From positions 66,920 through 130,919 of the forward strand of contig CALOBA010000038.1 of assembly GCA_942491465.1 (NCBI GenBank): a stretch of 64,000 nt of DNA, in the 5' to 3' direction. The notes below the pieces were generated by a model. That model saw only the letters and a program-made list of their open reading frames with translations. It did not search any database and was not told where the DNA came from. The stretch is from an uncultured Gammaproteobacteria bacterium. Lineage in GTDB: Bacteria > Pseudomonadota > Gammaproteobacteria > Chromatiales > Chromatiaceae. The position numbers were made by a program, and so were the translations under genes. Shown here piece by piece: positions 19,969-20,402 of this stretch (position 1 is its first letter; each line of letters starts with the position of its first letter).

Positions 19969-20077
19969 ATTCATCATCACCCCCCCCAACGACGAATCAT
20001 CGTCGCAGCCATTACTAAGGATTCAAAAAAATGAGCATATCGATTCAACCCGCGAGCCGGACAGTCTGTAGGGTGGA

Positions 20078-20351
20078 TAAGGAAGAATTCAGAAACAACG
20101 TGAACATGTCAACTCGTTGTCGTTGTCGTTGTCGTAATCGTCGTCGGATGCTCGATTTCGACAACGACAACGACAACGACTAACGACAACGACAACGACA
20201 ACGACAACGACAACGACAACGACAACGACAACGACAACGACAACGACAACGACAACGACAACGACAACGACAACGACAACGACAACGACAACGACAACGA
20301 ATCCTAGTTGTGCTATTGAGTTGTTTAACTTGTTAGTGAACCGTTACTAAG
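20078..20351 (+). mobile_element. hexanucleotide-hairpin MITE (subfamily 1), long arm 3+19 GACAAC units
   Basis: Same flanks and loop as 14084-14267. Perfect (GACAAC)19 at 20185-20298 after a GACTAAC interruption. Bracketed by TAAG (20078-20081 and 20348-20351). Confidence 0.85.
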
Positions 20352-20402
20352 CGCAGCGCATCCACCAATCGCCGTCGGTGGATGCGCTGCGCTTAATCCA
20401 CC
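20352..20402. repeat. REP-type palindrome (right part); its left arm, 20068-20081, is split off by the MITE
   Basis: CGCAGCGCATCCACC-N10-GGTGGATGCGCTGCGCTTAATCCACCC. Joining 20068-20081 to 20352 rebuilds GGGTGGATAAGCGCAGCGCATCCACC, the mirror of the right arm. Similar units at 22738-22765 and 27678-27711. Confidence 0.8.

Follow-up and report, generated by a model that had tools for sequence, protein, structure and literature searches.

Mobile elements are known to land inside REP palindromes. IS1397 and IS621/IS110-type elements insert into REPs, and a nested insertion that carries its own empty-site control is a standard argument in transposon work. REPs have also been documented as insertion targets of several autonomous IS families, namely ISPpu9, ISPpu10, ISPa11, ISPsy8 and ISRm19/22 (Tobes & Pareja 2006, PMC1525189). 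Similar to these cases, the locus described here holds a mobile element within a REP palindrome whose uninterrupted form is recovered by joining the flanks. However, the REP-inserting IS elements are autonomous, place most or all copies at a fixed position within REPs and in some cases are RNA-guided, whereas the present element is non-autonomous, touches a REP in only one or two of 220 copies and has a site explained by a short A/T-rich motif.

A second group of relatives comprises the IS5-family-derived bacterial MITEs, which duplicate T-N-A, and the PIF/Harbinger-Tourist elements, which duplicate TWA within CTTAG-like palindromes. By general properties the present element resembles both: it is short and non-coding, has terminal inverted repeats, is flanked by 3-bp TAA or TTA at C-TWA-G sites and belongs to a family of hundreds of copies. 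It differs in that no such transposase gene was detected here, and in that its subfamily carries an expandable hexamer microsatellite hairpin. The interrupted palindrome in turn resembles the REPs and REPINs of RAYT systems, of which the E. coli REP (...GGATGCG...CTTATCC..CCTAC) is the archetype, in being a GTAG-headed imperfect palindrome found in inverted pairs after genes. In contrast to RAYT REPINs, no RAYT lies within 5 kb here, and several REP copies are fused to MITE end modules.

The event is thus ordinary in kind and reveals no new targeting mechanism. What the locus adds is a proof, without a second genome, that the hexamer-array element is mobile, together with its exact boundaries and 3-bp duplication, which anchor the description of a large, otherwise orphan family. 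It also shows that the REP is a RAYT-type unit shared by many genera, gives a negative answer on REP preference and, as a further new feature, presents a REP pair bracketed by end modules.

Overall organization of the locus

The window analysed is the 64,000-nucleotide stretch C38:66920-130919 of a 5.87-Mb draft genome with 67% G+C, which is 94% complete with an estimated contamination of 8%. Positions are given in window coordinates, and the features of the locus are collected in Table 1.

Table 1. Features at and around the interrupted REP.
Feature	Position	Strand	Sequence and basis
Outer left module	20016..20067	+	GGATTCAAAAAAATGAGCATATCGATTCAACCCGCGAGCCGGACAGTCT; start uncertain, 20016 or 20020
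Left half of interrupted REP plus left TAA copy	20068..20080	+	GTAGGGTGGA, TAA = 20078-20080; joined to 20351-20366 gives the exact 29-mer consensus
Hexamer-array MITE, 267 bp	20081..20347	+	boundaries common to 20+ copies
Parts of the MITE	20081-20347		left end GGAAGAATTCAGAAACAACGTGAACATGT; (TTGTCG)3 arm; loop; (CGACAA)~23 array at 20159-20300; right end ...GTTTAACTTGTTAGTGAACCGTTAC
Right TAA copy of the 3-bp target duplication	20348..20350	+	sequence and family statistics
Right half of interrupted REP	20351..20366	+	GCGCAGCGCATCCACC; REP comparison, profile search
10-nt spacer separating the two inverted REPs	20367..20376	.	AATCGCCGTC; in reverse complement (GACGGCGATT) the REP's usual 3' tail
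Intact inverted REP arm	20377..20403	-	GGTGGATGCGCTGCGCTTAATCCACCC; one extra T, no GTAG head; nhmmer E=6e-5
Outer right module	20404..20440	-	GTAGCGATTCGATAACAATTGAAACACATGCGGTGCC in minus-strand reading; homologous to REP-linked modules
Stop codon of GT4 glycosyltransferase gene 20441-21577	20441..20443	-	plus-strand TCA = TGA; directly adjoins the outer right module
Uninterrupted REP of the same family	22737..22762	+	one mismatch; comparison unit of the first-pass annotation
Joined-flank string of the predicted empty allele	20040-20080 + 20351-20420		contains GGATAAGCGCAG

Direct reading of the sequence gives GTAGGGTGGATAAG at 20068-20081, then the element, and then ...CCGTTAC followed immediately by TAAGCGCAGCGCATCCACC up to 20366. 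Deletion of 20081-20347 with one TAA yields GTAGGGTGGATAAGCGCAGCGCATCCACC, a sequence present letter-perfect elsewhere in the genome; the rebuilding of a REP upon removal of the element, as claimed in the first-pass annotation, is therefore borne out. That annotation also took the right arm for the mirror image of the rebuilt one. An inverted REP arm is indeed present, but it measures 27 nt instead of 26, with TTAA in place of TTA and GCCG in place of the GTAG head. Likewise, its intact comparison unit near 22.7 kb exists, but begins one position earlier and ends three positions earlier than 22738-22765. The identity of the spacer is based on GACGGCGCT, which comes after many solo REPs. A promoter and terminator scan of 19400-20600 returned nothing relevant.

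The hexamer-array element and its superfamily

The inserted 267-bp block begins with GGAAGAATTCAGAAACAACGTGAACATGT and ends with GTTAGTGAACCGTTAC. Its left 33 nt recur 38 times in the genome and its right 48 nt 29 times, and pairing of left and right ends yields 24 hexamer-type elements of 139-561 bp, whose length differences lie mainly in the internal CGACAA array. Every evaluable hexamer-type copy starts with the same G and ends with the same C. None of the other 20+ copies sharing these boundaries has REP halves as its flanks. Folding pairs the TTGTCG and CGACAA arms as a hairpin. Comparison with the copy at window 14088-14263, 6 kb away, revealed 77 of 77 identical positions on the left (100%) and 48 of 49 on the right (98%). 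Since the ends are 98-100% identical to that copy, the insertion is probably recent and the copy at this locus probably young.

The element has the properties of a MITE, being short and non-coding and recurring with common boundaries in 24 hexamer-type pairs and, in the wider superfamily, 220 pairs. Terminal inverted repeats are present but imperfect in the hexamer subfamily, where GGAAGAATTCAGAAACAACG and GTAACGGTTCACTAACAAGT agree at 12 of 20 positions, and are better matched in the short subfamily (about 26 of 32 positions). A target duplication of fixed length is likewise found, with identical 3-bp flanks in 176 of the 220 pairs and TAA on both sides of the copy at this locus.

The superfamily core TTCAGAAAC occurs 376 times in the genome, and 539 superfamily ends are counted when one mismatch and the variant right end are allowed. 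The 220 paired elements consist of 199 short ones (80-100 bp) and 21 with hexamer arrays, and the superfamily amounts to about 270 insertions, for which the assembly contains no matching transposase. TAA or TTA makes up 140 of the 176 identical flanks. The other 44 pairs, among them the one on C43, have mismatched flanks and are chimeric copies.

The first-pass annotation had left the target duplication as either 4-bp TAAG or 3-bp TAA, and the terminal bases of the perfect-flank set decide for the shorter one. The first base of the element is G in 175 of 176 and the last base is C in all 176, whereas G follows the right-hand repeat in 135 and C precedes the left-hand repeat in 131. The terminal G...C is thus essentially invariant, while the flanking C and G are found in only about 75%. 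Therefore, the G following the left TAA belongs to the element and the G following the right TAA to the REP, the duplication measures 3 bp, and the family inserts preferentially at the palindromic pentamer C-TWA-G. The apparent TAAG repeat is TAA plus the element's first G on the left, and TAA plus the REP's own G on the right. Of the 176 clean insertions, 75 restore a CTWAG target and 8 an ATAAG target. The genome contains 1575 CTWAG pentamers, about a third of which flank ends of the MITE superfamily.

Identity of the interrupted palindrome

The rebuilt 29-mer is identical at 29 of 29 positions to three other genomic copies (C45:53681, C73:67015 and C8:129080), and about eight more copies match at 27-28 of 29. 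A profile built from twelve copies detected 41 family members genome-wide (E<0.5). Such agreement is far beyond chance, and the rebuilt palindrome is a recurring REP of this genome, just as had been supposed. Among the profile matches are variants whose stems carry compensating changes, for example GGGCGGAT...ATCCGCC and GGGTGGGTC...GACCCACC. A further stem variant, GTAGGGCGGATAAGCGATAGCGCATCCGCC, with compensating changes on both sides of the stem, lies at window 27678-27707. Uninterrupted inverted doublets are found at C72:136126-136192 and on C30, C21, C34, C32 and C31.

The unit is a short, imperfect, extragenic palindrome with a 5' GTAG head, which the right arm at this locus lacks. Folding of a single REP gives a hairpin whose outer stem measures 7 bp (-8.2 kcal/mol, z=-3.9); folding of the REP pair gives one long hairpin of -34 kcal/mol (z=-10.5). 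In the REP hairpin, the duplicated TAA comprises the final base of the stem plus both bulged A's.

REPs are normally lineage-specific, so the letter-for-letter sharing of this 29-mer across many genera is unusual. Across public genomes of many Gamma- and Betaproteobacteria the exact sequence was found in at least 119 stretches, the genera including Lamprocystis, Thiodictyon, Gallionella, Sideroxydans, Dokdonella and Aquimonas. A 25-nt core is present in 20, 12 and 4 copies in three other, related genera and in none with a reversed-pattern control; in these genera the core lies downstream of genes, without MITE sequence. In a Dokdonella MAG (L079:5631-6231) the REP forms a tandem array with a period of about 52 nt and at least eight direct copies in 0.6 kb.

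A connection to a transposase was found in a Gallionella MAG (L069), where inverted exact 29-mers at 409-437 (+) and 1003-1031 (-) bracket a 172-aa RAYT scoring 200 bits against model NF047646 (REP-associated tyrosine transposase; cut-off 80 bits). Because inverted copies of the exact 29-mer bracket a RAYT gene, the unit is a genuine RAYT-type REP, and the pair at this locus is a RAYT-type REP doublet (REPIN). In the present genome no Y1 transposase or RAYT gene lies within 5 kb of any REP copy, and neither here nor in G003, G007 and G025 is a RAYT flanked by inverted 29-mer REPs. No cognate RAYT was found in the assembly, the best match to the Gallionella protein being only 31% identical, and the clearest RAYT genes of this genome sit among a different REPIN (GTGGGAGCGGCTTCCAGCCGCGA). 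Two near-identical RAYT genes (141 bits) at C37:61900-63200 and C12:2750-4100 (G000) are clustered with this different REPIN, ATCGCGGCTGGAAGCCGCTCCCAC...GTGGGAGCGGCTTCCAGCCGCGA, and the C12 copy adjoins more than 300 bp of low-complexity sequence made of G and A only. No useful literature was found on the REP sequence or on IS5 elements with a CTAAG target.

The empty site

No orthologous locus was found in the 40 nearest genomes, which include none of the same genus and hold only paralogues of the glycosyltransferase with 66-73% identity. Searches of species-genome and metagenome collections with exact flank patterns gave no match. A Logan contig assembled independently from run ERR9669538, the only other contig with the neighbouring gene, carries this gene and the right junction; it is occupied and ends inside the element. 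This run may derive from the same sample as the genome. The evidence for the empty site is therefore paralogous, though exact.

Could the REP halves have been brought to the element in some way other than insertion into a pre-existing REP, by recombination between copies or by an error of metagenome assembly? We regard this as extremely improbable, even though the draft carries 8% estimated contamination and 44 of the 220 pairs, C43 included, are chimeric copies whose flanks disagree. At this locus both flanks are REP halves that join without gain or loss of a base, apart from one TAA, and their trinucleotides agree, TAA and TAA; such a perfect target duplication is not expected from recombination. 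The right junction, in addition, is reproduced on the separate Logan assembly. A second alternative is that REPs attract the insertion, either through the transposase or through the element's own hairpin DNA, and would be true hot spots, as they are for ISPpu9, ISPa11 and IS1397. In favour of such a preference, two independent element ends abut a REP broken at the identical trinucleotide. One is at this locus, the sole copy among the 220 pairs with both flanks in a REP. The other belongs to an element at C43:1538, whose end abuts the REP half GGGTGGATGCGCGGCGC-TTA. The site used here is also ATAAG, a one-off, sub-optimal variant of the CTWAG target, and several IS families are documented to target REPs (PMC1525189).

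The genome has 1367 ATAAG/CTTAT sites, about 25 of them in REPs of the rebuilt-29-mer family by the profile search. With eight clean insertions at ATAAG, about 0.15 REP hits are expected if all sites are equally usable, and about 0.6 under the assumption, made for intergenic DNA, that no more than about one site in four is tolerated. The estimate is given as a range because the GC3-based coding mask was crude: at only 62% coverage of the genome it was too loose to define intergenic DNA. With both ends counted as hits, P is about 0.01-0.12. The C43 element, however, has a second flank outside any REP and mismatched trinucleotides (TTA against TAA), as recombinational rearrangement of a copy would produce, and its inclusion brings the excess to borderline at most. 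The remaining 218 of the 220 paired elements lie outside REPs, in contrast to the REP-targeting IS elements. The first-pass annotation had proposed a genome-wide scoring of REPs interrupted at the TAAG; beyond this locus it yielded only the C43 half-case, while about 25 intact REPs with ATAAG are unoccupied. No junction between a REP left half and an element end occurs in 200 family genomes, and no insertion of 76-106 bp between TAA repeats was found in exact-consensus REPs by a gapped pattern in the species-genome collection. A single G020 match to a REP half with an element end was rejected, as the sequence is not a REP, and the matches of the gapped pattern were all tandem REPs. We consider an active preference for REP hairpins improbable. 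The earlier statement that REP units are themselves targets thus holds for one true insertion into a REP unit, but preferential targeting does not follow from one or two hits in 220. A clean case and a half-case in 220 elements come close to the chance level, and the hit at this locus is probably incidental to TAAG in tolerant DNA.

Proposed mechanism of insertion

Taken as a whole, the locus is very probably explained by insertion of a MITE at TAA within a REP arm that was an incidental target, presumably by a DDE enzyme acting in trans; the locus itself is probably nested. A small non-coding MITE, with inverted ends of core TTCAGAAACAA and an internal hairpin of the hexamers TTGTCG/CGACAA, cut into the chromosome at a TAA in one arm of the inverted REP pair, duplicating the TAA. 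The insertion point is the junction between the 7-bp outer stem and the inner bulge of the REP (GGTGGAT/AA/GCG). We propose that insertion struck this REP on account of its TAAG, which nearly matches C-TWA-G, and its position in tolerant intergenic DNA, and not because the transposase recognizes REPs.

Cleavage staggered by 3 nt would be carried out by a DDE transposase in trans, as in IS5-family and PIF/Harbinger-type elements; the two features that point to this enzyme class are the 3-bp TWA duplication and the target. As in those families, the 3-bp TNA/TWA duplication is found at the palindromic C-TWA-G, but no DDE transposase of the family was detected. No transposase adjoins single ends with unusual interiors, and the 94%-complete assembly contains neither a cognate autonomous element with the same ends nor a DDE_Tnp_1 (PF01609) locus with matching ends. 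The PF01609 matches that do occur look like other IS families by motif. The IS5/Harbinger-related domains PF13359, PF13586, PF05598 and PF13340 gave 0 matches in the same assembly.

The locus illustrates how insertions arriving later can disrupt a palindromic repeat that stands behind a gene. Such splitting matters when REPs or these arrays serve as strain markers and when the regulation of this surface-glycan gene cluster is interpreted; the insertion might have some effect on the cluster.

Modules bracketing the REP pair

Without the element, the REP doublet lies between two modules that resemble superfamily ends, and the doublet with its modules sits directly after the stop codon of the GT4 glycosyltransferase. 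The left module (~20016-20067) aligns with a terminal module of the hexamer MITE at C43 and with REP-linked modules at C8:129027 and C72:91140, which likewise continue into ...AGTC(T/G)-GTAGGG. In minus-strand reading, the right module starts with GTAGCGATTCGATAACAA, and its relatives at C73:67044-67082, C72:136096 and C6 start with GTAACGATTCAAAAACAA. Each module starts with a superfamily-type end beside T-N-A, namely TTA/TAA on the left and TCA on the right.

As the REP pair is bracketed by end modules of the same superfamily, the locus is probably a nest of successive insertions. The shared module-REP junctions further suggest that some REPs in this genome travel as the core of MITE-type elements. 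An extended reading would be that REPs were captured as the central hairpin of TTCA(G/A)AAACAA-superfamily MITEs in place of hexamer arrays and spread by the DDE transposase after loss of their cognate RAYT, which would make the locus a MITE nested in a REP-carrying MITE. If so, two unrelated kinds of non-autonomous DNA would have fused as one mobile unit, and the REP-carrying element would have landed on a stop codon. We hold this reading to be rather unlikely and keep it as a lead only, because the flank trinucleotides are not perfectly matched and only two full composites were found.

Three further repeats were observed. A 440-bp degenerate (GTCGTT/GTCGTG)n tract lies within window 19516-20015 and starts 9 nt upstream of the likely GT4 ATG (19507, minus strand); its end, ...GAATCATCGTCGCAGCCATTAC, may represent the degraded right terminus of a hexamer MITE. 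At C64:121900-122075 (G000) a CGACAA/CGACAG array runs straight into ...CATAGTCT-GTAGTCGGTTATAGATAAGCGCAGCGCATCCACC, a REP variant with its left stem replaced that is also found at C72:136164, so that hexamer arrays and REPs are physically linked there. The window also contains, at 41409-42868, 13 tandem copies of a 111-bp unit with 95% identity; the unit holds GGGACGCC/GGCGTCCC palindromes.
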